64,000 bases of DNA from assembly GCA_963768855.1 (NCBI GenBank), contig CAVYJM010000007.1:68600-132599 (forward strand), given 5' to 3'. This document shows positions 35,299-44,791 of this stretch, one piece after another. Source of the stretch: an uncultured Thermoplasmata archaeon (GTDB lineage: Archaea; Thermoplasmatota; Thermoplasmata; RBG-16-68-12). Numbering within the stretch: the first letter of the stretch is position 1; the number at the start of each line of letters is the position of its first letter. The notes below the pieces were generated by a model. The model was not told the origin of the DNA, ran no database searches, and saw only the letters and a program-made list of their open reading frames with translations. Position numbers and translations under genes: made by a program.

Positions 35299-36227
35299 GG
35301 TTGCCAGCTCCGGATGAGTTCGATGGCCCCCTCGCTGAACAACGCGAGCCGGCCGGGGTCGCCGCCGGGCGCGAGGATCTCCGCGTTCAGGCCGGCGGGG
35401 CTCGTGACCTCGACGCCGGGCAGGTTGCCGAACAGGCGCCGGACCTTGGCGGGCTCCTTCACGACGACGAGGAGGCTGCGCGGTTGTCTCAGGCGGCGGC
35501 CGCGGAGCTTGCCGCGTCCCGCGCGCACGTGCCGACCGTCCTTCGCGCGGACGATGTCGTCCTGGAGACCGAGCCGCTCAAGGATCGCGAGCCCTTCGCG
35601 GGTCGCGCCCTCCTCCGGCTCGAAGGACTCGATCGCGTCCTCGAGGACGACCGGAAGGCTGAGCCGCACGTCGAAGCGGTGACCGCGCGCGGACACGATC
35701 GCGGGGTCCCGGAGGGCCGCGAGCGCGGCGTTCCGAGCGAGCCCTCGCTCGTGGGAGTTCATCTTCTTCTCCCAGATCGTGTCGGGACGTGGCGGGTGGG
35801 CACGTCGCCCTCCGACCGTGCCGGGGGCCTGGGCGCCCGTCATGCCTCCGCGCAGCCGGGGCACGCGGGAGACCCCGTGGCCCTTCCCGGACCACCGGAC
35901 GGAGTGCTTCATCCCCGACCGCGAGTTCGGTCCGTAGGGTTGGCGGCGGTTCGCCTGGAATGCGGTGACGGCGCGGCGGATCAGATCCTGCCGCACCTCG
36001 GATCGGAACACCGCGGGGAGGTCGATCGTCTTCACGGGCTCTCCCTCCATGGAGTAGACGCGGACCTGGCCGGGCCGCAGGGCGGGGCCTTTCTCCGCGG
36101 GCGCGGCCGCCTTGGGCTTCGCGGCCTTCGGCGCGGCGCGTCGTGCGCGGCGCGTCCTCGGCGCGGGCGCCTCCTCGGCGGGCGTCTCCTCCGGGGCCTC
36201 CTTCTTCGGGCTCTCGTCCTCGGCCAT
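35295..36227 (-). CDS. rpl4: 50S ribosomal protein L4 with N-terminal extension
   Basis: LPAVFRSEVRQDLIRRAV, WSGKGHGVSRVPR, GGRRAHPP, LAPGGDPGRL. Start ATG 36227. Confidence 0.94.
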   Translation of the reverse strand: MAEDESPKKEAPEETPAEEAPAPRTRRARRAAPKAAKPKAAAPAEKGPALRPGQVRVYSMEGEPVKTIDLPAVFRSEVRQDLIRRAVTAFQANRRQPYGPNSRSGMKHSVRWSGKGHGVSRVPRLRGGMTGAQAPGTVGGRRAHPPRPDTIWEKKMNSHERGLARNAALAALRDPAIVSARGHRFDVRLSLPVVLEDAIESFEPEEGATREGLAILERLGLQDDIVRAKDGRHVRAGRGKLRGRRLRQPRSLLVVVKEPAKVRRLFGNLPGVEVTSPAGLNAEILAPGGDPGRLALFSEGAIELIRSWQP

Positions 36228-36232
36228 CGAGC

Positions 36233-37234
36233 TCAGGCCCCCTGCTTGGATTCCCGCGAGATGAACGTGACCTCGGGCGGCTTCTCGAGCTTCACGAAGC
36301 CTCCGCGGCTCGCGTCCCGCAACCGGATGAGCCGCTTCGCAGGACCCGGGATCGAGCCGTGCAGGATGACGTAGGAGTTGCGGATGTTCCCGTAGTTCAG
36401 GAAGCCGCCGTCGGGCGTGATCTCGTCCCCCTTCTCCCCGACCTTCAGGATCCGCTTGTTGTACTCGGTCCGCTGATGGTATCCGAACTGCCCTCCCTGG
36501 GGGACGGTCGGCCGGACGAATCCGGGGTTGAAGTTGCCGAGCGTGCCGATGTTCCGGCGGTGCTTCGAGTTCTTGTGGCTGAGGAGGCGGGTGCCCCACC
36601 GGGTGTGGTGGCCCTGCCACCCCTTGCCCTTCGTGATCGCGGCGACGTCGACCATGGAGCCCTCGCGGCAGAACTCGGTGACGGGGATCTCCTTGCCGAG
36701 GTGCTCCCGCGCGTACTTGAGGCGGTCCGCGACCGCGCCGCCCCCGATCCGGTTCTCCATGAGATCGGGCTTCTTCTTCGGGACTCCGGAGACGAGGGTG
36801 GGCTGGGTGTACGTCAGGAGGCGAATGTCGTCGACCTGAAGGGCATCGACCTTCTTCCAGGCCTCGTCGACGTCGTAATCCTTCGGGATCGGGAAGACGC
36901 GGCTCAGCTCCTTGTCGAGGCGGGGCGCCCAGACCTCGCCGACGGTCTTGAGGCCCTCGTGGGTCTGTTGGTACATCCGGATGCCGGCGACCTTCATCGG
37001 CGGCACCTCGACGACCGTGACGGGGACTTGGACCTCCTGGCCCGAAGTAGTCGACGTCGGCCGGTAGTCGACGATCGTGGCGTGGGTCATGCCGGCCTTG
37101 TAGCCTGCGAATCCCTGGACGCGGGGCGCTCCGTCGATGTCGGGCCAGCTGGAGAAATGCGGGATCGGGCTTTCGCTGCGCTTGCGGGGCGAGAAGCCCA
37201 TCGAGCCATGGCGGGGGCGATGTTCCTTGGGCAT
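36233..37234 (-). CDS. rpl3: 50S ribosomal protein L3
   Basis: PRHGSMGFSPRKR, GYKAGMTH, ITKGKGWQG, GQFGYHQRTEYNKRI, GSIPGPAKRLIRLR. Confidence 0.96.
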   Translation of the reverse strand: MPKEHRPRHGSMGFSPRKRSESPIPHFSSWPDIDGAPRVQGFAGYKAGMTHATIVDYRPTSTTSGQEVQVPVTVVEVPPMKVAGIRMYQQTHEGLKTVGEVWAPRLDKELSRVFPIPKDYDVDEAWKKVDALQVDDIRLLTYTQPTLVSGVPKKKPDLMENRIGGGAVADRLKYAREHLGKEIPVTEFCREGSMVDVAAITKGKGWQGHHTRWGTRLLSHKNSKHRRNIGTLGNFNPGFVRPTVPQGGQFGYHQRTEYNKRILKVGEKGDEITPDGGFLNYGNIRNSYVILHGSIPGPAKRLIRLRDASRGGFVKLEKPPEVTFISRESKQGA

Positions 37235-37411
37235 AGGGACTCCTCCGGAGAGCGTCGTCTCTCCTCGCGTGCGATCACGCGGAGTCGATTGGGCGCGACA
37301 CCGTGACGCTGCCTGCAGTCCCAGAAGAGTGGGCCCGCATTCCCGGGATCCGCGAAGGATTGCCCGGAGGGCGTCTGGTTGACGCGACGGCCGCTCCCTA
37401 TGGACGGGGTC

Positions 37412-37418
37412 TATTTAA
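37412..37418 (-). promoter_or_regulatory. Putative TATA box of the ribosomal protein superoperon
   Basis: TTAAATA on the minus strand, ~180 nt upstream of the rpl3 ATG. Only AT-rich island in a GC-rich spacer. Confidence 0.55.
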
Positions 37419-37479
37419 CGGTTTGGAGGGCTTCGCCCTCCCGGTCGAGTCGACTCGGTTCCCGCGATGCCGACGCGGC

Positions 37480-37653
37480 TCAGCGCGGCAGCGCGCGCGC
37501 CTTTCGGCTCGTCGACTGGACGACCTCGGCGGCGGGCCTCACGAGCGCCTCGCCGAGAGGGCTCCGTTCTTCCTCGACGTCGGAGGACGCCTCTTGCATC
37601 GCGAGCCGTCGCCAGAGCTCCCGCATCCGCTCGTCATCGTATTCGTCGCACAT
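37480..37653 (-). CDS. Small hypothetical protein, 57 aa
   Basis: MCDEYDDERMRELWRRLAMQEASSDVEEERSPLGEALVRPAAEVVQSTSRKARALPR, with a GGGAAG SD-like site upstream. Confidence 0.5.
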   Translation of the reverse strand: MCDEYDDERMRELWRRLAMQEASSDVEEERSPLGEALVRPAAEVVQSTSRKARALPR

Positions 37654-37826
37654 CGCTTCCCTCACCAGAATCCACGGCGCCCGGACGTATCAGGATTCCG
37701 CGTTCCGGGGCGGGCCGGCGGGCCGCTCGACGCCCGGAAATGAGCGCGGACGTATCGTGATTGATAACTCGCCCACAACGGTTAAATGAGCACCCTCAGT
37801 ACTCTGTGATTGCAAGCGGGACCCCC

Positions 37827-38390
37827 ATGGAAGTCAAGCGAATGAAGGTGAAAGTCTGCCTGGTCGGCGAAGCGGCGGTCGGAAAGACCTCGCTCATCCG
37901 GCGGTTCGTGCTCGAGAACTTCGACGACAAGTACATCCAGACCCTCGGGACCAAGGTCTCCAAGAAGGAGATGTCCGCACCCAACGTCGATCCCTCCGGC
38001 GAGATGAAGATCGACATGACGATCTGGGACATCATGGGCCAGAAGGGTTTCCGGGAGCTCCTCAAAGAGGCCTACTTCTACGGCGCGAAGGGCATCCTGG
38101 CCGTGTGCGACTCGACGCGCAAGAAGACCCTCGAGGATATCGATGACTGGATCGAGGGCGTGTACAGCGTCACCGGGAAGATTCCGATCGAATTCCTCGC
38201 CAACAAGGTCGACCTGAAGGACGAGACCCAGGTCACCGAGGATGACATGGTCCAGGCGGCGAAGGCCTACGACAGCCCGTTCCACTTCACCTCGGCCAAG
38301 ACGGGCGTCAACGTCGAGCTCGCCTTCCAGTCCCTCGCGGAACGGATCGCCAAGGAGCGGTTCGCACGCAAACTCATTCCCGACGAGTGA
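37827..38390 (+). CDS. Rab/Ras-like small GTPase, copy 1
   Basis: G1 GEAAVGKTS, switch I YIQTLG, G3 WDIMGQ, G4 NKVD, G5 TSAKTG. Confidence 0.92.
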   Translation: MEVKRMKVKVCLVGEAAVGKTSLIRRFVLENFDDKYIQTLGTKVSKKEMSAPNVDPSGEMKIDMTIWDIMGQKGFRELLKEAYFYGAKGILAVCDSTRKKTLEDIDDWIEGVYSVTGKIPIEFLANKVDLKDETQVTEDDMVQAAKAYDSPFHFTSAKTGVNVELAFQSLAERIAKERFARKLIPDE

Positions 38391-38454
38391 GAGAATTATC
38401 AGCCCCGGTAACGCGGGCGCACCCTACTTTAAGCCGGAGCCGATTGCCGAGACG

Positions 38455-39006
38455 ATGTCGATGACCGAAGCCGCGGCGCAGAAGCACGTGAAGGCGAAGG
38501 TCTGCCTCGTCGGCGACGTCGCCGTCGGGAAGACCTCCCTAATCAAGCGGTTCGTCCTCGAGTCCTTCGACGACCGGTACGTGGCCACGGTGGGCACGAA
38601 GGTCACGAAGAAGACCGTGAACACGGACTGGAAGGGCGTACCTGCGACGATCGATATCATGGTCTGGGACATCATGGGGGAGAAGGGCTTCCGGTCCCTC
38701 CTGCGGGACGCGTACTTCGAGGGCGCGCACGGCGTCCTGGCCGTGTGCGATCTCACCCGCAAAGACACGTTCTACGATCTGAACAACTGGGTCCAGATGG
38801 TCCGAAAGCAGGTGGGCGACGTCCCGATCGTCTTCCTTGGGAACAAGGCGGACCTGACCGAGCGCGTGGTCGTGAGCCCGGAGGAGCTGGCGCGGATGGG
38901 GGCCATCCTGAACGCGAAGTACTTCCTCACCTCGGCCAAGACCGGCAAGAACGTGAACGAGGCGTTCCAGGTCCTGGCGGATGCGATCGGCCACCGCGGC
39001 GACTGA
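38455..39006 (+). CDS. Rab/Ras-like small GTPase, copy 2
   Basis: G1 GDVAVGKTS, switch I YVATVG, G3 WDIMGE, G4 NKAD, G5 TSAKTG. Confidence 0.92.
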   Translation: MSMTEAAAQKHVKAKVCLVGDVAVGKTSLIKRFVLESFDDRYVATVGTKVTKKTVNTDWKGVPATIDIMVWDIMGEKGFRSLLRDAYFEGAHGVLAVCDLTRKDTFYDLNNWVQMVRKQVGDVPIVFLGNKADLTERVVVSPEELARMGAILNAKYFLTSAKTGKNVNEAFQVLADAIGHRGD

Positions 39007-39118
39007 GCCTCCGTCCAAAGGGGAGCAGACCCTCCCGTTATCCATGCAGATAACGGCGTGGGAATTCCTTTATAATCTAAGACTTGTGCGCGGCGTTGAG
39101 AACAGCTCGGTGTACGCC

Positions 39119-39658
39119 ATGGACCCGGATCGGATGAAGGTCAAGATCTGCCTCGTCGGCGAGGGTGCGGTGGGGAAGACCTGCCTGATCCGGCGGTTCA
39201 TCCACGACCAGTTCGATGACCGATACATTTCGACCCTCGGCGCGAAGGTCTCCAAGAAAGAACTCGTCGTGGAGATGGACGGCACCCGGGTCGACGTCGA
39301 CATGACGATCTGGGACATCATGGGCGAGAAGGGCTTCCGCGAGCTGCTCAAGGAAGCGTACTTCCACGGCGCCCAGGGCGTCCTCGCCGTCTGCGACGTG
39401 ACGCGGATCGAAACCCTGACGGACCTGGACGAGTGGGTCGCGGCGGTCGTGAAGGTGACCGGCAAGATCCCCGTCGAGTTCCTCGCGAACAAGGCCGACC
39501 TGACGGACCAGCGGGTCGTGACGCCCGCGGACCTCGAGTCCGCAGCGAAGACCCACGAGGCCCCGTTCATGTTCACCTCGGCGAAGACCGGGGAGAACGT
39601 CGAGCACGCGTTCGCGGAGCTCGCGAAGTTGATCACGGCACGGGCTCACGCGCAGTGA
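39119..39658 (+). CDS. Rab/Ras-like small GTPase, copy 3
   Basis: G1 GEGAVGKTC, switch I YISTLG, G3 WDIMGE, G4 NKAD, G5 TSAKTG. Confidence 0.92.
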   Translation: MDPDRMKVKICLVGEGAVGKTCLIRRFIHDQFDDRYISTLGAKVSKKELVVEMDGTRVDVDMTIWDIMGEKGFRELLKEAYFHGAQGVLAVCDVTRIETLTDLDEWVAAVVKVTGKIPVEFLANKADLTDQRVVTPADLESAAKTHEAPFMFTSAKTGENVEHAFAELAKLITARAHAQ

Positions 39659-39794
39659 CCGCGTCGCGTCGCTTCGAGATGCGTTCCTATCTGGAAAATG
39701 CTCTCCATGTGATTTCTCAGGTCAAAGATTTTAAGTACGAGCGTCGTGTATTCAAACGCAAGTTGCCTCACCTCCGGGTGAGGATGGTCGTACA

Positions 39795-41777
39795 ATGCCG
39801 GACACACCGGGGGAAACCGCGGAGGAGTTGCCCCCTGTTGACACGTGGATCAACAAGCTCGACTTCAAAAGCACGGCCGAGGTCAAGATCCCGGACCGGC
39901 TCGTCGACCAGGTCATCGGCCAGGAACGCGCGGTCGAGGTCGTCCGGAAGGCCGCCGAGCAGAAGCGGCACGTGATGCTCATCGGCGACCCCGGCACGGG
40001 GAAGTCCATGCTCGCCCGCTCCATGACGGAGCTGCTGCCGCGCGACGAACTCCAGGACCTGATCGTCTACCATAACCCCGAGGATCCGAACGAGCCCAAG
40101 ATCCGCGTCGTACCCGCGGGCAAGGGGCGCGAGATCGTCAACGCCCAGAAGGCGGAGGCCATGCAGCGCCGCGAGCAGAAGGCGTCCATGGTCATGACGA
40201 TCGTCTTCTTCATCATCGGCCTCTCGGTCATCCTCTCGTGGGATTGGGGCGCCGGCACGTTCCGTCCGGACGCGGCGACGACGATCCTGTTCGGGATCCT
40301 GGTGGCTGCGATCATCTACATCGCCACCCGCTACACGGGCCACCGCCAGGAGAACCTGATGGTCCCGAAGCTCCTCGTGACGCACAGCCCGGACGACATG
40401 CCCCCGTTCATCGACGCCACGGGCAGCCACGCGGGCGCCCTCCTCGGGGACGTCAAGCACGATCCCTTCCAGAGCGGCGGCCTCGAGACCCCCGCGCATG
40501 AGCGCGTCGAGTCCGGGGCGATCCACAAGGCCAACAAGGGCGTCCTGTTCGTCGACGAGATCAACGTGCTCCGCATGGAGAGCCAGCAGAGCCTGCTCAC
40601 CGCGATGCAGGAGAAGAAGTTCTCCATCGTCGGCCAGAGCGAGCGATCGAGCGGCGCCATGGTCAAGACGGAGCCCGTTCCGTGCGACTTCGTCCTGGTC
40701 GCTGCGGGGAACCTGGACGCGGTCCAGGGCATGCACCCCGCGCTCCGGTCGAGGATCCGCGGATACGGGTACGAGATTTACATGAAGAGCACGATGGCGG
40801 ACACGGAGGAGAACCGTCTCAAGCTCGTGCGCTTCGTCGCCCAGGAAGTGTCCAAGGACAAGAAGATCCCCCACTTCGACAAGCCGGCCGTGGCCGAGAT
40901 CCTCCGAGAGGCGCAGCGGCGGGCCGGGCGGCGGGGGCAACTGACCCTGCGTCTGCGTGAGCTCGGCGGCCTTATCCGGGTCGCGGGGGACATCGCCCAG
41001 GAGTCGGCCGCGCCCCTCGTCACGAACAAGCACGTCCTCGATGCGAAGCGGATCGCACGCTCCCTCGAACAGCAGGTCGCGGACCGGATGATCGAGCGGG
41101 GCAAGGAGTACCAGATGGTCGTCACCCGCGGGACCGGCGTGGGCATGGTGAACGGCCTCGCCGTGCTGATCGGCGACAACAGCCTGGCGGAGTTCAGCGG
41201 CATCGTCCTCCCGATCGCGGCCGAGGTGACCCCTGCCCAGACCCGCCAGGGCGGGCGCATCATCGCGACCGGGCGGCTCGGGGACATCGCCAAGGAAGCG
41301 GTCGAGAACGTCGCCGCCCTGATCAAGAAGTACACGGGCGAGGACATCTCGAACCACGACATCCACGTCCAGTTCGTCGGCTCGCGGGAAGGCACGGAAG
41401 GCGACAGCGCGTCCATCTCCGTGGCCACCGCCGTGATCAGCGCGCTCGAGGAGGTCCCCGTGGACCAGAGCGTCGCCATGACGGGCTCCCTGAGCGTCCG
41501 CGGGCAGGTCCTGCCCGTCGGCGGCGTGACGGCCAAGATCGAGGCCGCCGCGGAGGCGGGGGCGCGCAAGGTCCTCATCCCGCGGGCGAACATGCGTGAT
41601 GTGCTGCTCGAGGACAAGTACATCGGGAAGATCGAGGTCACCCCCGTGGACACGCTGAGCGACGTGCTCGACCAGGCCCTCGTCGGGCCCAAGAAGTCGG
41701 GCCTCATCCAGCGCCTCTCGTCCCTCGTGCCCAAGATCACCTCGGACAAGCCTGGACCCGCCGTGGTCCCCCACTGA
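39795..41777 (+). CDS. lonB: Archaeal membrane-anchored ATP-dependent protease LonB
   Basis: DQVIGQE, Walker A GDPGTGKS, two-TM insertion, HDPFQSGG, LFVDEI, catalytic Ser GDSASI and Lys GGVTAKIEAA. Confidence 0.96.
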   Translation: MPDTPGETAEELPPVDTWINKLDFKSTAEVKIPDRLVDQVIGQERAVEVVRKAAEQKRHVMLIGDPGTGKSMLARSMTELLPRDELQDLIVYHNPEDPNEPKIRVVPAGKGREIVNAQKAEAMQRREQKASMVMTIVFFIIGLSVILSWDWGAGTFRPDAATTILFGILVAAIIYIATRYTGHRQENLMVPKLLVTHSPDDMPPFIDATGSHAGALLGDVKHDPFQSGGLETPAHERVESGAIHKANKGVLFVDEINVLRMESQQSLLTAMQEKKFSIVGQSERSSGAMVKTEPVPCDFVLVAAGNLDAVQGMHPALRSRIRGYGYEIYMKSTMADTEENRLKLVRFVAQEVSKDKKIPHFDKPAVAEILREAQRRAGRRGQLTLRLRELGGLIRVAGDIAQESAAPLVTNKHVLDAKRIARSLEQQVADRMIERGKEYQMVVTRGTGVGMVNGLAVLIGDNSLAEFSGIVLPIAAEVTPAQTRQGGRIIATGRLGDIAKEAVENVAALIKKYTGEDISNHDIHVQFVGSREGTEGDSASISVATAVISALEEVPVDQSVAMTGSLSVRGQVLPVGGVTAKIEAAAEAGARKVLIPRANMRDVLLEDKYIGKIEVTPVDTLSDVLDQALVGPKKSGLIQRLSSLVPKITSDKPGPAVVPH

Positions 41778-41856
41778 TCGCAAGGGGGCCTCGGGTGGGA
41801 CGGATCGGCAATTCTCCATGCACCTTGGGGCTCTGGCCCCTCCCGGAGGCGGCGAG

Positions 41857-42405
41857 ATGACGCGGACCCTGTTCATCGGCCGGTTCCAGCCGTTCCACAA
41901 CGGGCATCTTGCGATGGTCCAGCGGATCCTCCAGGACAACGACGAGGTCATCATCGGCATCGGGTCCGCGCAATACAGCCACACCGGCGAGAACCCCTTC
42001 ACCGCGGGGGAGCGCTTCGAGATGATCAAACGCGCGCTGGACGCGGTGGGCATCCACGACTACCACATCGTCCCGATCCCCGACACCCATGTCCACAGCG
42101 TGTGGGTGAGCCACGTCAAATCCATCGTGCCCCCGTTCGATGCGGTCGTCACGAACTCGGACCTCGTCGTCCGCCTGTTCCGCGAACACGGCCTGAAGGT
42201 CCTCTCCCCGAACATGGTGAGCCGGGAGAAGTACTCCGGGACGGAGGTCCGCCGCCGGATGCAGAAGGGCGGCGACTGGCAGTCCCTCGTCCCTCCCGTC
42301 GTGGCCGCCTACATCGAGGAGATCGACGGGATCGAGCGCATCCGGGAGACGTACAAGTACTCCACGCCCTACGGGACTCGAGAAAACAATCACGACGAAG
42401 AATAA
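41857..42405 (+). CDS. nadM: Nicotinamide-nucleotide adenylyltransferase
   Basis: FIGRFQPFHNGH, GIGSAQ, NPFTAGER, SGTEVRRRM...W..LVP. Confidence 0.93.
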   Translation: MTRTLFIGRFQPFHNGHLAMVQRILQDNDEVIIGIGSAQYSHTGENPFTAGERFEMIKRALDAVGIHDYHIVPIPDTHVHSVWVSHVKSIVPPFDAVVTNSDLVVRLFREHGLKVLSPNMVSREKYSGTEVRRRMQKGGDWQSLVPPVVAAYIEEIDGIERIRETYKYSTPYGTRENNHDEE

Positions 42406-42582
42406 TGAAAAGGACCCGTTCCGCAAGCGCGCGTGGGGAACGGGCTCTTTGGTAGGCATCCCCCCAAACGAGGACTCGCATCCCCTTGGATTCCTACCGC
42501 CACCATGACACGTCCCCGAGTACTTAAGCCCATGTTACCACCTTGTTACCACCTCGGACGTGCCGATCCGGGGGCGTGGCGA

Positions 42583-43410
42583 CTACCACCCGATCTCGTA
42601 GCCGCAGTACGGATCGCCCTTCAGGATGCAGGCGACCTTCCGCACCCGAACGTGCCTGAAGCCGTAGTCGGCGAGAATCCCCTCGTAGGTCCCCATCCAA
42701 GCCGCGCAACGCGCGGGGCTGCTAATCCAGTCGTAGTTCTTCGCGAGGGCGCGGCGGCCGTGGACCTCAATCTCGAGGCGACCGTGGTTGAACTCTCGGG
42801 CGTAGATCGCCGGTGCGAGTTCGAGGAAGTACTTGAACGGGATGATGATGCCCACGTACCGTTTCACCGACGCGAAGTTCATTGATTCCTCGCGGAGCAT
42901 CGTCCGAACGGTCTCCCCCGAACCGTCGCCAAACGTCTTCTCAATCGAGTCCAAGACCGTGACGACGGTCCGCAGGGGGTACCATCCGGTCGCGTCGATC
43001 GTCTTGGTGGAGATGTCGTGCTCGAGGAAGAAGTCGTCCGCGACCTTCTTGCCGTACTTCTTGCTGATCCAGTGATAGTAGTTCCGGAAGTGGCTTCCCC
43101 GAGCGAGGGGGGCCACGAGGCGGTCCCCGCGGGTGCTCGTGAGCTCGTCGAACACGATCTTCCCCAGGGGCGTCGTCGAGTAGATCTTGCCGCGCGACCC
43201 GTTGCTCAGCGGGGTCACGAGCCCTTCGTGGGCGAGCTGCGCGAGCGCCCGGCTCACGTGCGGCAGGTGGAGGCCCGTCTCCTTCGCGATCTGGGCGGGC
43301 GTCCGCGTGCCCGGGATCACGGCCCCGAGGACCTTCTCCCGCTGGCTGCTCGAGAGGACGTAGGAGAGTTTCTCGAGGGCTTCGGGGGACGCGCTGGGGA
43401 GATTGGCCAT
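42583..43410 (-). CDS. Winged-HTH regulator fused to a V4R/HNOB-like sensory domain
   Basis: N-terminal LSSSQREKVL..TPAQIAKETGLHLPHVSRALAQL..EGLV..KIYSTTPLG. C-terminal GWYP, WMGTYEG, CILKGDPYCGYEIGW (V4R-like C..GD..C). Confidence 0.7.
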   Translation of the reverse strand: MANLPSASPEALEKLSYVLSSSQREKVLGAVIPGTRTPAQIAKETGLHLPHVSRALAQLAHEGLVTPLSNGSRGKIYSTTPLGKIVFDELTSTRGDRLVAPLARGSHFRNYYHWISKKYGKKVADDFFLEHDISTKTIDATGWYPLRTVVTVLDSIEKTFGDGSGETVRTMLREESMNFASVKRYVGIIIPFKYFLELAPAIYAREFNHGRLEIEVHGRRALAKNYDWISSPARCAAWMGTYEGILADYGFRHVRVRKVACILKGDPYCGYEIGW

Positions 43411-43468
43411 CCGGTTCCTTGCGGGGTTTGATGCGGGATGGGGCTAGAAAAACCTTCCCACCGTTCCG

Positions 43469-44791
43469 TCACGCACCGTACGAACCGATCAGGACGGGCA
43501 GCAGGAGCGCTGCCATGAGCTGGATCCGCCGCACCCCGATCCGGACGGGCACCGCACCGGCGAGGCACGCGAGCCCGGCCACGCCGAGGCCGATCCAACC
43601 CGTCGCCAGCAGGATCAGGACGCCGAGGGCGAGGAGGGTCACCGCGGACAGGAGGCGCGGGTCCCACCTCGCGAACCGGGGGGCCAGCGCCGTGGCCAGG
43701 CGGGACGCGACGGGCGCCGCAACGACGGCAGCGAGGACCGAGGCGAGCACGATCCAGAGGACCGCGGAGGGGAGCGCGAAGGGAGAGGGCCAAGTCCCGG
43801 GACCGCCGAGGAGCTCTCGGACGGCTGCCGCGACGCCGCTCCGCGCTCTCCCGATCATGAAGAGCACGGAGACGCTGAGGACCGCGGTCGAGGTCGACAC
43901 CGCGCCGAGGATGACCATGAACCCGGAGGGCGGGAGCTTCCGCGACGTGCCGAGGGCGGCCAGGGTCGCGGCGGCGCCCCCGCTGAGTCCCGGGAGCCAG
44001 GAGACGGCCGCGCCCGCGAGGGAACCGCGGACGGCCTGACCGGCCTCGGAGCGAGTGAGCGGCTCGAGCGGCACCGTCCTCTGCTCCGGGACCTGACCCG
44101 GGCGTGTCCAGAGCGCGACGACCAGGTTGGGCAGGCCGAAGAGACCTGAGAAGAGCGGGAAGAGGGCCGCGTTCGAGTCGAGACTGGAGGGCCCGCGGAG
44201 GACGGCGAGCCCGAGGAGGCCCGCCAGGATCTGGACCTGGATCGCCCGGGCCATGCGGCGGAGGCGCTTGCGGGGGAACCTCGCCTCGGTCGCGACCAGG
44301 GCGACGAGCATCCCCGCGAGGAAGATCGGCGTCCAGGGGCGGAAGGCCTCCGCGAGGCCCACCGGGTCGCCCAAGAGCAACCGGAGCGGGACGAGCGCCG
44401 CGGCGGACAGGGCCACGCCGAGGACCGCGCCCCGCGCCGCGAGGGCCACAGCCCGTGCACCTTCTCCGTCGAGGAGCATCCGGTGTCCCGGGAGGATCGA
44501 GAGGGCCGTCTCCTCCGTGGGCGCTCCCAGGAAGACGGACGGGACGAAGTCGAAGATCCCGTGGCTCACCGCCGTGGCCACGAGGTAGCACGACAGGAGG
44601 AGACCCAGGGTGGCGGGATCCTCTCCGGACCACGGGCCCAGGAGGAACGCGACCCACGAGGCCCGCGTGGCGAGGAGGACCGCTGCGACGTTGTTCACGT
44701 GCAGGCCCGGGGAGAGGCCGGTGACCGCGCCGGTCCCGAACCCAAGGAGGACGAGGCTGAGGAACGCGAGGCCGAAGCCCGGAGCGTCCAC
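43469..44791 (-). CDS. Tripartite tricarboxylate transporter TctA-like permease (archaeal DUF112/COG1784)
   Basis: GAVTGLSPGLHVN, FVPSVFLGAP, SILPGHRMLLDG.G..A, LFPLFSGLFG, SWLPGLSGG. Confidence 0.85.
   Translation of the reverse strand: MDAPGFGLAFLSLVLLGFGTGAVTGLSPGLHVNNVAAVLLATRASWVAFLLGPWSGEDPATLGLLLSCYLVATAVSHGIFDFVPSVFLGAPTEETALSILPGHRMLLDGEGARAVALAARGAVLGVALSAAALVPLRLLLGDPVGLAEAFRPWTPIFLAGMLVALVATEARFPRKRLRRMARAIQVQILAGLLGLAVLRGPSSLDSNAALFPLFSGLFGLPNLVVALWTRPGQVPEQRTVPLEPLTRSEAGQAVRGSLAGAAVSWLPGLSGGAAATLAALGTSRKLPPSGFMVILGAVSTSTAVLSVSVLFMIGRARSGVAAAVRELLGGPGTWPSPFALPSAVLWIVLASVLAAVVAAPVASRLATALAPRFARWDPRLLSAVTLLALGVLILLATGWIGLGVAGLACLAGAVPVRIGVRRIQLMAALLLPVLIGSYGA

Follow-up and report, generated by a model that had tools for sequence, protein, structure and literature searches.

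We describe here three adjacent genes for Rab-like small GTPases, designated G1, G2, and G3 and together called the trio, in the genome of an uncultured Thermoplasmata archaeon. They occupy positions 37827 to 39658 of the window, the whole 64,000-nucleotide stretch of DNA that was analyzed. The reading that we favor, at a probability of roughly 0.55, is that the three proteins act as GTP-binding molecular switches and belong to a Rab-like, Thermoplasmata-specific branch of the Ras superfamily, that they are co-regulated and divide labor among themselves, and that they are cycled in trans by longin-like tails of other proteins. The array is conserved among relatives, its copies differ at the catalytic position of switch II in a fixed Gln/Glu/Glu pattern, and a common palindrome precedes each of the three genes.

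Three Diverged Paralogs in a Conserved Array

G1 (37827-38390, 187 amino acids), G2 (38455-39006, 183 amino acids), and G3 (39119-39658, 179 amino acids) all lie on the plus strand, as open reading frames bounded by stop codons that each hold a single G domain and are too short for a COR or LRR domain. The five canonical GTPase motifs, themselves numbered G1 to G5 (we write "motif" where these are meant), are complete in every copy (GxxxxGKT, YxxTxG, WDIMG[QE], NKxD, and SAK), and the stretch FRELLKEAYFxGAxGxLAVCD is found in the trio. The P-loop reads GEAAVGKT in G1, GDVAVGKT in G2 (with Val at the position of Ras Gly12), and GEGAVGKT in G3; switch II reads WDIMGQ in G1, where the equivalent of Ras Gln61 is kept, and WDIMGE in the other two. 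Matches to the Pfam Ras family (PF00071) score 118.1, 128.3, and 129.5 bits for G1, G2, and G3, respectively (cut-off 21.6), over profile positions 1-161 of 162, compared with 92-94 bits to the Roc profile and 40-47 bits to the Arf profile. Only the generic small_GTP domain of NCBIfam is above its cut-off for each protein. The chains stop 10-20 residues past the last helix, in ends without Cys (KLIPDE in G1, GHRGD in G2, and ARAHAQ in G3). Since pairwise identity among the three is 52%-63%, they are paralogs that have diverged, rather than duplicates created by the assembly; the GC content around them (0.62-0.67) is ordinary for the contig. A preliminary description of this DNA had portrayed three adjacent stand-alone GTPases of ~180-190 amino acids with full motifs, diverged from one another and lacking both a C-terminal Cys and a Roc/COR architecture, and all of these points hold.

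Comparisons were made within the order to which this genome belongs and across a class-wide sample of 201 Thermoplasmata genomes, whose families are labeled f1, f2, and so on to f29. The gene order uL3 (minus strand), G1, G2, G3, LonB, and an NMN-adenylyltransferase-like gene (NMNAT) is kept in ~60 loci. Families f2 and f3 have four GTPase copies and have lost the uL3 neighbor while keeping the array beside lonB; f4 keeps uL3 and the trio, with lonB elsewhere; and the minimal arrays of one genus (loci L071 and L120) consist of G1 and G3 only. In a quick IQ-TREE analysis of 95 G domains, G1 and G3 form order-wide orthogroups with short branches, and G2, the fastest-evolving copy, falls in a strongly supported clade (99) limited to f1, f4, and f6. 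Averaged over alignment columns, identity is 81% for G1, 69% for G2, and 78% for G3; G1 and G3 show no variation in either switch region; and G1 is 67%-94% identical across loci where uL3 is 57%-94% identical. The ratio of nonsynonymous to synonymous substitution rates (dN/dS) against the closest relatives is 0.06-0.12 over the trio and 0.06-0.08 for G1. The trio is an old tandem array under strong purifying selection. Decay of the genes in related genomes, which the preliminary description had named as an outcome that would count against its interpretation, is contradicted by their retention in ~60 loci and by these dN/dS values.

The RNA-library contigs of four soil studies include matches to all three genes, at ~85-90% identity, and some bridge G1 and G2. 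These contigs come from relatives, may include DNA carry-over, and cannot show starts, ends, or strand, so that they lend weak support to expression of the trio genes in relatives. None of the RNA libraries was listed as matching the whole window, and the RNA runs matching G1 contain small shares.

Relationship to Rab, Ras, and Rho Proteins

Judged from sequence and from a modeled structure, the trio groups with Rab, Ras, and Rho rather than with MglA or Arf, because the rankings of a PDB sequence search, of Foldseek, and of an exhaustive structural comparison (VIA) place it there. All 60 listed matches of G3 to PDB sequences are Rabs, led by a Thorarchaeota Rab (7ezb, 5e-30) and followed by Rab8A, Sec4, Rab1, and Ypt1 (5e-30 to 1e-23 in the best hits). 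The AlphaFold2 model of G1, built on a 27-row alignment, has a mean predicted confidence (pLDDT) of 83.5 and shows the canonical G fold with a long C-terminal helix. The best 50 Foldseek matches of this model are likewise all Rabs, with the highest TM-score for Thor-Rab (0.82/0.89). In the VIA comparison with 48,161 representative chains, Z was 21-23 for Rab27, Rab3, Rab9, NRAS, Sec4, and RhoA (Rab27, 23.3), compared with 17.8 for MglA and 16.5-16.8 for Arf6 and Arl13B (Arf6, 16.5). Within Rab/Ras/Rho the structural scores are tied, and the Rab relationship is one of best-hit rankings. At this level the "Rab/Ras-like" label of the preliminary description is upheld.

The best 120 proteins listed in a homology search are Thermoplasmata relatives only, and matches by cluster name in a protein atlas, which are leads by name only, run from Thermoplasmatota to Promethearchaeota and IFT27-like clusters. 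Compared by eye with the RabF motifs, YF[YEH]GA resembles YYRGA and LAVCD[SLV]T resembles LVYDIT, whereas LGTKV differs from IGVDF. The trio is not Arf/Sar: its N-termini enter strand 1 directly, with no N-terminal amphipathic helix, and the Arf scores are those given above. It is not of the MglA family, as the G3 motif keeps its Asp (WDIMG[QE], not the TxPGQ type) and no Roadblock gene is on the contig; nor, with a single G domain and no COR, is it Roco.

Position-Specific Catalytic Residues

The first copy reads WDIMGQ in 60/60 arrays, with the P-loop GEAAVGKT in 46/49 three-copy arrays and GEGAVGKT in four-copy arrays. The second reads WDIMGE in 49/49 and usually has Val, Phe, or Ile at the position of Ras Gly12, and the third reads WDIMGE in 48/49, with the P-loop GEGAVGKT. 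Because these copy-specific residues are constant across arrays, the Gln/Glu/Glu pattern is a fixed property of the array. Its effect on hydrolysis is a matter of prediction. The copies would divide labor, with G1, which has the catalytic Gln, acting as a conventional switch assisted by a GTPase-activating protein. G2 and G3 would be expected to differ from it in the kinetics or the route of GTP hydrolysis, because Glu replaces the catalytic Gln in both and G2 in addition has Val or Phe at the Gly12 position.

A Common Operator and Its Candidate Regulator

A palindrome, TATC-N6-GATAAC, sits 10-15 nucleotides 5' of a TATA-like box upstream of each gene of the trio, in a genome with a GC content of 67%. 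On the plus strand before G1, TATCGTGATTGATAAC (37753-37768) is an exact match to TATC-N6-GATA and is followed after 13 nucleotides by the box TTAAAT (37782-37787), ~40 nucleotides before the ATG; this AT-rich box is kept in relatives and is the presumed promoter. Before G2, TATCAGCCCCGGTAAC (38397-38412, plus strand) has one mismatch, and the box TTTAAG (38428-38433) lies ~22 nucleotides before the ATG; the G2 transcript may be leaderless or near-leaderless. Before G3, TATCCATGCAGATAAC (39039-39054, plus strand) is followed after 14 nucleotides by a TATA box, TTTATAA (39069-39075). In related arrays the palindrome (one mismatch at most, within 150 nucleotides upstream) is found before 43/46 G1, 47/48 G2, and 48/48 G3 genes, compared with 1/60 lonB upstream regions. 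Scans for sigma-70 promoters and terminators look for bacterial-type signals and are uninformative for an archaeon, and an Rfam scan (E ≤ 0.1) of window positions 36000-43000 found no structured RNA.

The genome of the window (2.87 Mb, 93.6% complete, 7.7% contaminated; its contigs are labeled C6, C10, C12, and so on) contains 20 exact TATC-N6-GATA sites, compared with 4-8 in shuffled sequence, and the palindrome-plus-TATA architecture is present at 23 sites. Among these 23 are the promoters of G1, G2, G3, and a fourth GTPase gene (on C15); three genes for surface proteins with the longin-like tail discussed below (C11:298528, C18:136648, and C6:242567); two KaiC-like ATPases (C10:14299-15015 and C7:8237-11119); two large CARDB/MG2 surface proteins with double zinc ribbons near the presumably cytoplasmic C-terminus (C6:729774-733223 and C10:186959-189703); and two small HTH_20 regulators, 48% identical to each other (C12:3938-4279 and C6:1030445-1030828).

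On our reading the three genes would be transcribed separately and switched together by one dimeric regulator, a small HTH_20 winged-helix protein that would bind TATC-N6-GATAAC. The most likely candidate is the product of C12:3938-4279. Its orthologs (62%-97% identity) are present in 24/24 sampled genomes of the order, and elsewhere only paralogs of ≤53% identity are found. The palindrome stands 58-59 nucleotides before the ATG in 24/24 of the orthologous promoters, and this signature of an autoregulated binder is what makes this order-specific protein the best candidate. It is encoded in a tandem pair of small HTH_20 regulator genes (C12:3938-4807).

Longin-Like Tails as Candidate Partners

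The closest class-level relatives of the trio, in f10 (~5 copies), f14 (single-copy), and one f24 genome, adjoin genes for large surface proteins of ~900-1400 amino acids. In f10 and f14 the GTPase gene lies directly upstream of a surface protein of ~1360-1410 amino acids with a signal peptide. These surface proteins end in a transmembrane helix and a tail of ~130 amino acids that is conserved between families; the f24 genome (G220), the only one of its family with a GTPase, also has one tail gene, 356 nucleotides away. An AlphaFold2 model of the tail (pLDDT 80.4) has a beta-beta-alpha-beta-beta-beta-alpha topology. Its best Foldseek matches are the longin domains of sigma- and mu-adaptin and zeta-COP (E 2e-6 to 1e-4, TM 0.5-0.63), followed by the Rag C-terminal domain, LAMTOR, and MglB (E ~1e-3) and by TRAPP Bet5; as modeled, the tail thus has the longin/roadblock superfold. 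Pfam Robl_LC7 (Roadblock) matches the tails weakly, in 3/16 members.

Across the same 201 genomes, tail and GTPase occur together in 133, the GTPase alone in four, the tail alone in none, and neither in 64, and presence is nearly identical family by family; the tail:GTPase ratio is 1:1 in f14 and f29. The genome of the window has 17 tail genes, three of which adjoin GTPase genes, and ~7 Roadblock genes. The longin-like tails are probably the partners of the trio, because they co-occur with the GTPase family throughout the class and partly share its operator. By analogy with MglB, Ragulator, and longin-type guanine nucleotide exchange factors, the trio would be cycled in trans by these membrane-anchored cytoplasmic tails of large surface proteins, and would link the cell surface to cytoplasmic targets.

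This changes one element of the preliminary description, which had stated that no Roadblock or longin gene is present: the statement stands for the contig of the window and fails for the genome. The wider search for partners that it had proposed turned up the Roadblock and longin-like tail genes counted above, and for GDI only weak matches to N-terminal profile positions. The TBC, TRAPP, and Longin Pfam profiles had no match in the genome, which is weak evidence of absence since the TBC and Longin controls matched in no genome.

Two further observations concern these domains. A 2439-amino acid protein (C18:136483-143799; L162:484-7800), whose promoter carries the palindrome and a TATA box, has two internal longin-like tail domains together with CARDB and Ig-like domains and a C-terminal DUF5915, and homologous open frames of 2295-2487 amino acids occur across the order. 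At C6:941711-942856, a weaker MglA-like GTPase match adjoins two Roadblock/LC7 genes, an MglA/MglB-type arrangement separate from the Rab-like family.

Weighing the Proposed Switch Module

Several points weigh against the reading of the trio as co-regulated, tail-cycled switches. Nucleotide binding, hydrolysis, partners, and the regulator are predictions from sequence. The palindrome motif was defined from the trio itself, and it was not found upstream of GTPase genes, including receptor-linked ones, in families f10, f14, f26, and f27. In the genome of the window the full operator architecture precedes only 3/~17 tail genes and 4/19 GTPase genes, so any regulon common to GTPases and tails is partial. 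HTH_20 regulators often autoregulate, and another factor could recognize the same dyad. Ras Q61E hydrolyzes GTP faster than the wild type; if the same applies here, Glu need not mean a defect. Searches for the tail and for Roadblock (PF03259) found no gene of either kind beside the trio or anywhere on its contig, and the pairing of trio and tail is drawn from relatives and from co-occurrence, not from the trio locus. Co-occurrence in turn reflects few independent gains and losses, as related genomes are not independent of one another.

A broader claim, which we regard as possible but rather doubtful, is that Thermoplasmata, though not Asgard archaea, evolved or inherited a complete Rab-like signaling system, with up to 20 or more paralogs per 2-3 Mb genome, membrane-anchored longin-fold domains on large surface proteins as partners, and the order-wide Gln/Glu/Glu trio as a co-regulated core under a dedicated HTH_20 regulator.

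Gene Neighborhood and Alternative Roles

The trio lies, as the preliminary description had it, between a ribosomal superoperon and lonB. Upstream, uL3 (36233-37234, minus strand; Pfam Ribosomal_L3, 298 bits) heads the divergent ribosomal operon. Downstream, LonB (39795-41777, plus strand, 660 amino acids; Pfam Lon_C and LonB_AAA-LID) is a membrane-bound protease that is a conserved neighbor with its own promoter and probably stands outside the module.

The trio could work with LonB, for example by gating substrate delivery to the membrane-bound protease or by regulating its activity. The synteny comparison that the preliminary description had suggested shows the array immediately before lonB, in the same orientation, in 5/6 families of the order examined, with gaps of 120-300 nucleotides, and the adjacency survives the loss of uL3 in f2 and f3. 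However, lonB and NMNAT (window 39795-42405) form a pair of neighboring, co-oriented genes in all the Thermoplasmata families checked, whether these have the GTPases or not. Since the pair stands with no GTPase upstream in f9, f10, f14, f28, and f29, the array appears to have been inserted beside a pre-existing, stable lonB-NMNAT pair. In f4, moreover, uL3 and the trio stay together with lonB elsewhere; lonB has its own TATA-like box and Shine-Dalgarno-like leader and lacks the operator in 59/60 loci; and all Pfam matches of the protein are to Lon or AAA+ ATPase families. Given the class-wide pair and the missing operator, the position of the trio beside lonB is probably a matter of gene order inherited at the order level, and a joint function with LonB seems unlikely. 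We know of no functional link between lonB and the NMN-adenylyltransferase-like gene. Farther downstream, at 42583-44791 on the minus strand, a gene for a winged-helix protein with an HVO_A0261-like N-terminal domain adjoins one for a TctA-family transporter, a pair kept only in the closest relatives.

Another proposal takes the three paralogs as parts of one heteromeric complex, such as a nucleotide-dependent dimer of G domains in which the Gln and Glu copies complement each other's active sites. The order of the copies is fixed and their catalytic variants are position-specific across the order, the minimal arrays keep precisely G1 and G3, and the switch regions are invariant in these two. 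Yet stable heteromers of G domains are rare among small Ras-like GTPases, the trio lacks the C-terminal roadblock domains by which Rag GTPases dimerize, and separate promoters do not enforce stoichiometry. Co-folding of G3 and G1 with GTP and Mg scored 0.03 (mark, 0.32), a result that counts neither for nor against binding. We consider such a complex improbable.

The divergent uL3 neighbor in most families of the order might suggest GTPases associated with the ribosome or with translation, and conservation that equals or exceeds that of uL3, along with weak NCBIfam matches to Der, Era, and YsxC, could be taken in the same sense. These matches reach only 16-26 bits against cut-offs of 124-441, however, and the rankings by fold and by sequence favor Rab/Ras/Rho. 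Families f2 and f3 no longer have uL3 beside the array, and the GTPase family is nearly missing in three families of small, near-complete genomes (f12, 0/20; f17, 1/23; f24, 1/19). Its absence from f12 and near-absence from f17 and f24 indicate that it is not a core ribosome factor, and a translational role is very unlikely. The 590-nucleotide gap between uL3 and G1 contains a minus-strand open reading frame of 61 amino acids (37480-37665) with no Pfam match; its N-terminal ~20 residues are kept in 26 related loci, its N-terminus is conserved within the genus, and it could be a small protein heading the ribosomal operon or merely conserved DNA.

That the trio are functional equivalents of eukaryotic Rabs, marking internal or specialized membranes and driving vesicle-like traffic, would suit their closest solved relatives (Rab8, Rab1, Sec4, and Thor-Rab), the ~18 copies per genome, and the co-occurrence with longin-fold domains, but is highly improbable for proteins that lack both the C-terminal Cys and the hypervariable tail needed for a lipid anchor, in a genome where the search for Roadblock, Longin, GDI, TBC, and TRAPP gave no TBC, TRAPP, or Longin match (weak evidence, given the controls noted above) and only N-terminal GDI traces.

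Spread of the Family and Prior Knowledge

Related contigs are named as Thermoplasmata, Euryarchaeota, or "Methanomassiliicoccales" archaeon (for example RBG_16_67_27, RBG_19FT_COMBO_69_17, and the EA_x and SMAG soil metagenome-assembled genomes), in accord with the non-Asgard origin first proposed for this DNA, and the DNA runs matching the stretch are wetland and freshwater-sediment metagenomes. The family was found in 137/201 sampled genomes of the class. The genome of the window has 18 strong copies and one divergent copy, and the range within its order is 7-20 copies per genome. Orthologs carry the NCBI name "Rab family GTPase," and single Rab-like genes have been listed in a Thermoplasmatales archaeon and in Aciduliprofundum (Surkont and Pereira-Leal 2016, PMC4915359). 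Our literature search found no functional study of the orthologs and no paper on the Thermoplasmata expansion or the trio, so the term "little-characterized" used in the preliminary description was apt.

Two near-identical copies of one Rab-like paralog lie on small contigs (C20:7219-7824 and C24:12899-13504). Their switch II reads WDIMGH and a motif scan detected no P-loop, NKxD, or SAK, a set of features that may mark a pseudo-GTPase. The duplicated contigs (likewise C16:1549-3993 versus C6:1074525-1076678) may have arisen from the 7.7% contamination or from a mixture of strains.

Significance

The usual view takes the joint expansion of small GTPases and of longin or roadblock domains as a mark of Asgard archaea and as a stage in the origin of eukaryotic membrane traffic (PMC4917890, PMC10933270). 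In Thermoplasmata, an archaeal class apart from these, a radiation of GTPases of a similar kind is seen, though on a smaller scale. If the family should prove to be a sister group of the Asgard and eukaryotic Rab/Ras proteins, or to have been exchanged with them, the partnership of Rab and longin would not be an Asgard-specific prelude to eukaryotic trafficking; the pairing would then be an older or horizontally shared archaeal device for signaling at the cell surface. The trio could reveal what Rab-like switches do in a cell that seems to lack eukaryote-type trafficking machinery, and it cautions against taking Rab-like genes as evidence of eukaryote-like compartments. It also offers testable features: a strongly conserved three-gene core, one Gln-type and two Glu-type switches, an operator, a named candidate regulator, and candidate membrane-tethered partners. 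New here are a count of co-occurrence over the whole class, evidence that speaks against a tie to lonB, statistics for the operator, and the candidate HTH_20 regulator.

Comparison with Known Systems

The trio is a variant of an already known kind, the prokaryotic Rab-like or "Rup" GTPases with longin/roadblock platforms. The Rup family comprises Ras-superfamily GTPases of unknown function in prokaryotes, with a bacterial Group 1 and a crenarchaeal Group 2 of up to six copies (Wuichet and Sogaard-Andersen 2014, PMC4316618). Like its members, the trio proteins are prokaryotic, shorter than 240 amino acids, equipped with eukaryote-like canonical G motifs that include the Asp of the G3 motif, and not coupled to mglB; some Rup members also lack the Gln of the G3 motif, as G2 and G3 do (PMC4316618). 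The Thermoplasmata radiation of 7-20 copies lies outside the coverage of that study. Its archaeal group has no conserved neighbors (PMC4316618), whereas in the present case a longin-like tail domain co-occurs with the GTPases and an operator is present.

Asgard Rab-like proteins, such as the Thorarchaeota Rab (PDB 7ezb/7eze; Tran et al. 2024, PMC10933270), are likewise stand-alone G domains of ~180 amino acids with a short C-terminus and no prenylation Cys, encoded in genomes also rich in roadblock or longin domains. They have DxAGQ in switch II, in contrast to the WDIMG[QE] of the Thermoplasmata trio, and the trio differs further in its constant arrangement of three genes, its Gln/Glu/Glu pattern, and its common operator. 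Where the roadblock and longin domains of Asgard archaea are soluble or fused, the partner-like domain in Thermoplasmata is a membrane-anchored tail of surface proteins. With the eukaryotic Rabs (Rab8A, Rab1, and Sec4/Ypt1) the trio shares the G1-G5 motifs, the fold (VIA Z 21-23), and a related switch-II/alpha2 sequence (FRxLxxxYFxGA versus FRSITxSYYRGA); it differs from them in lacking the hypervariable domain and the C-terminal CC/CXC prenylation motif by which eukaryotic Rabs are recognized, and in that two of the three copies have no catalytic Gln.

The logic that we propose is closest in kind to MglA/MglB and Rag/Ragulator, in which a small GTPase is cycled by a dimerization platform of the roadblock/longin fold. 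The trio departs from MglA in keeping the Asp of the G3 motif, in lacking the MglA insertion, and in structural score (Z 17.8 for MglA versus 23). In contrast to MglB and Ragulator, the candidate platform is membrane-tethered as the tail of large surface proteins and, for the trio, would be encoded elsewhere in the genome.

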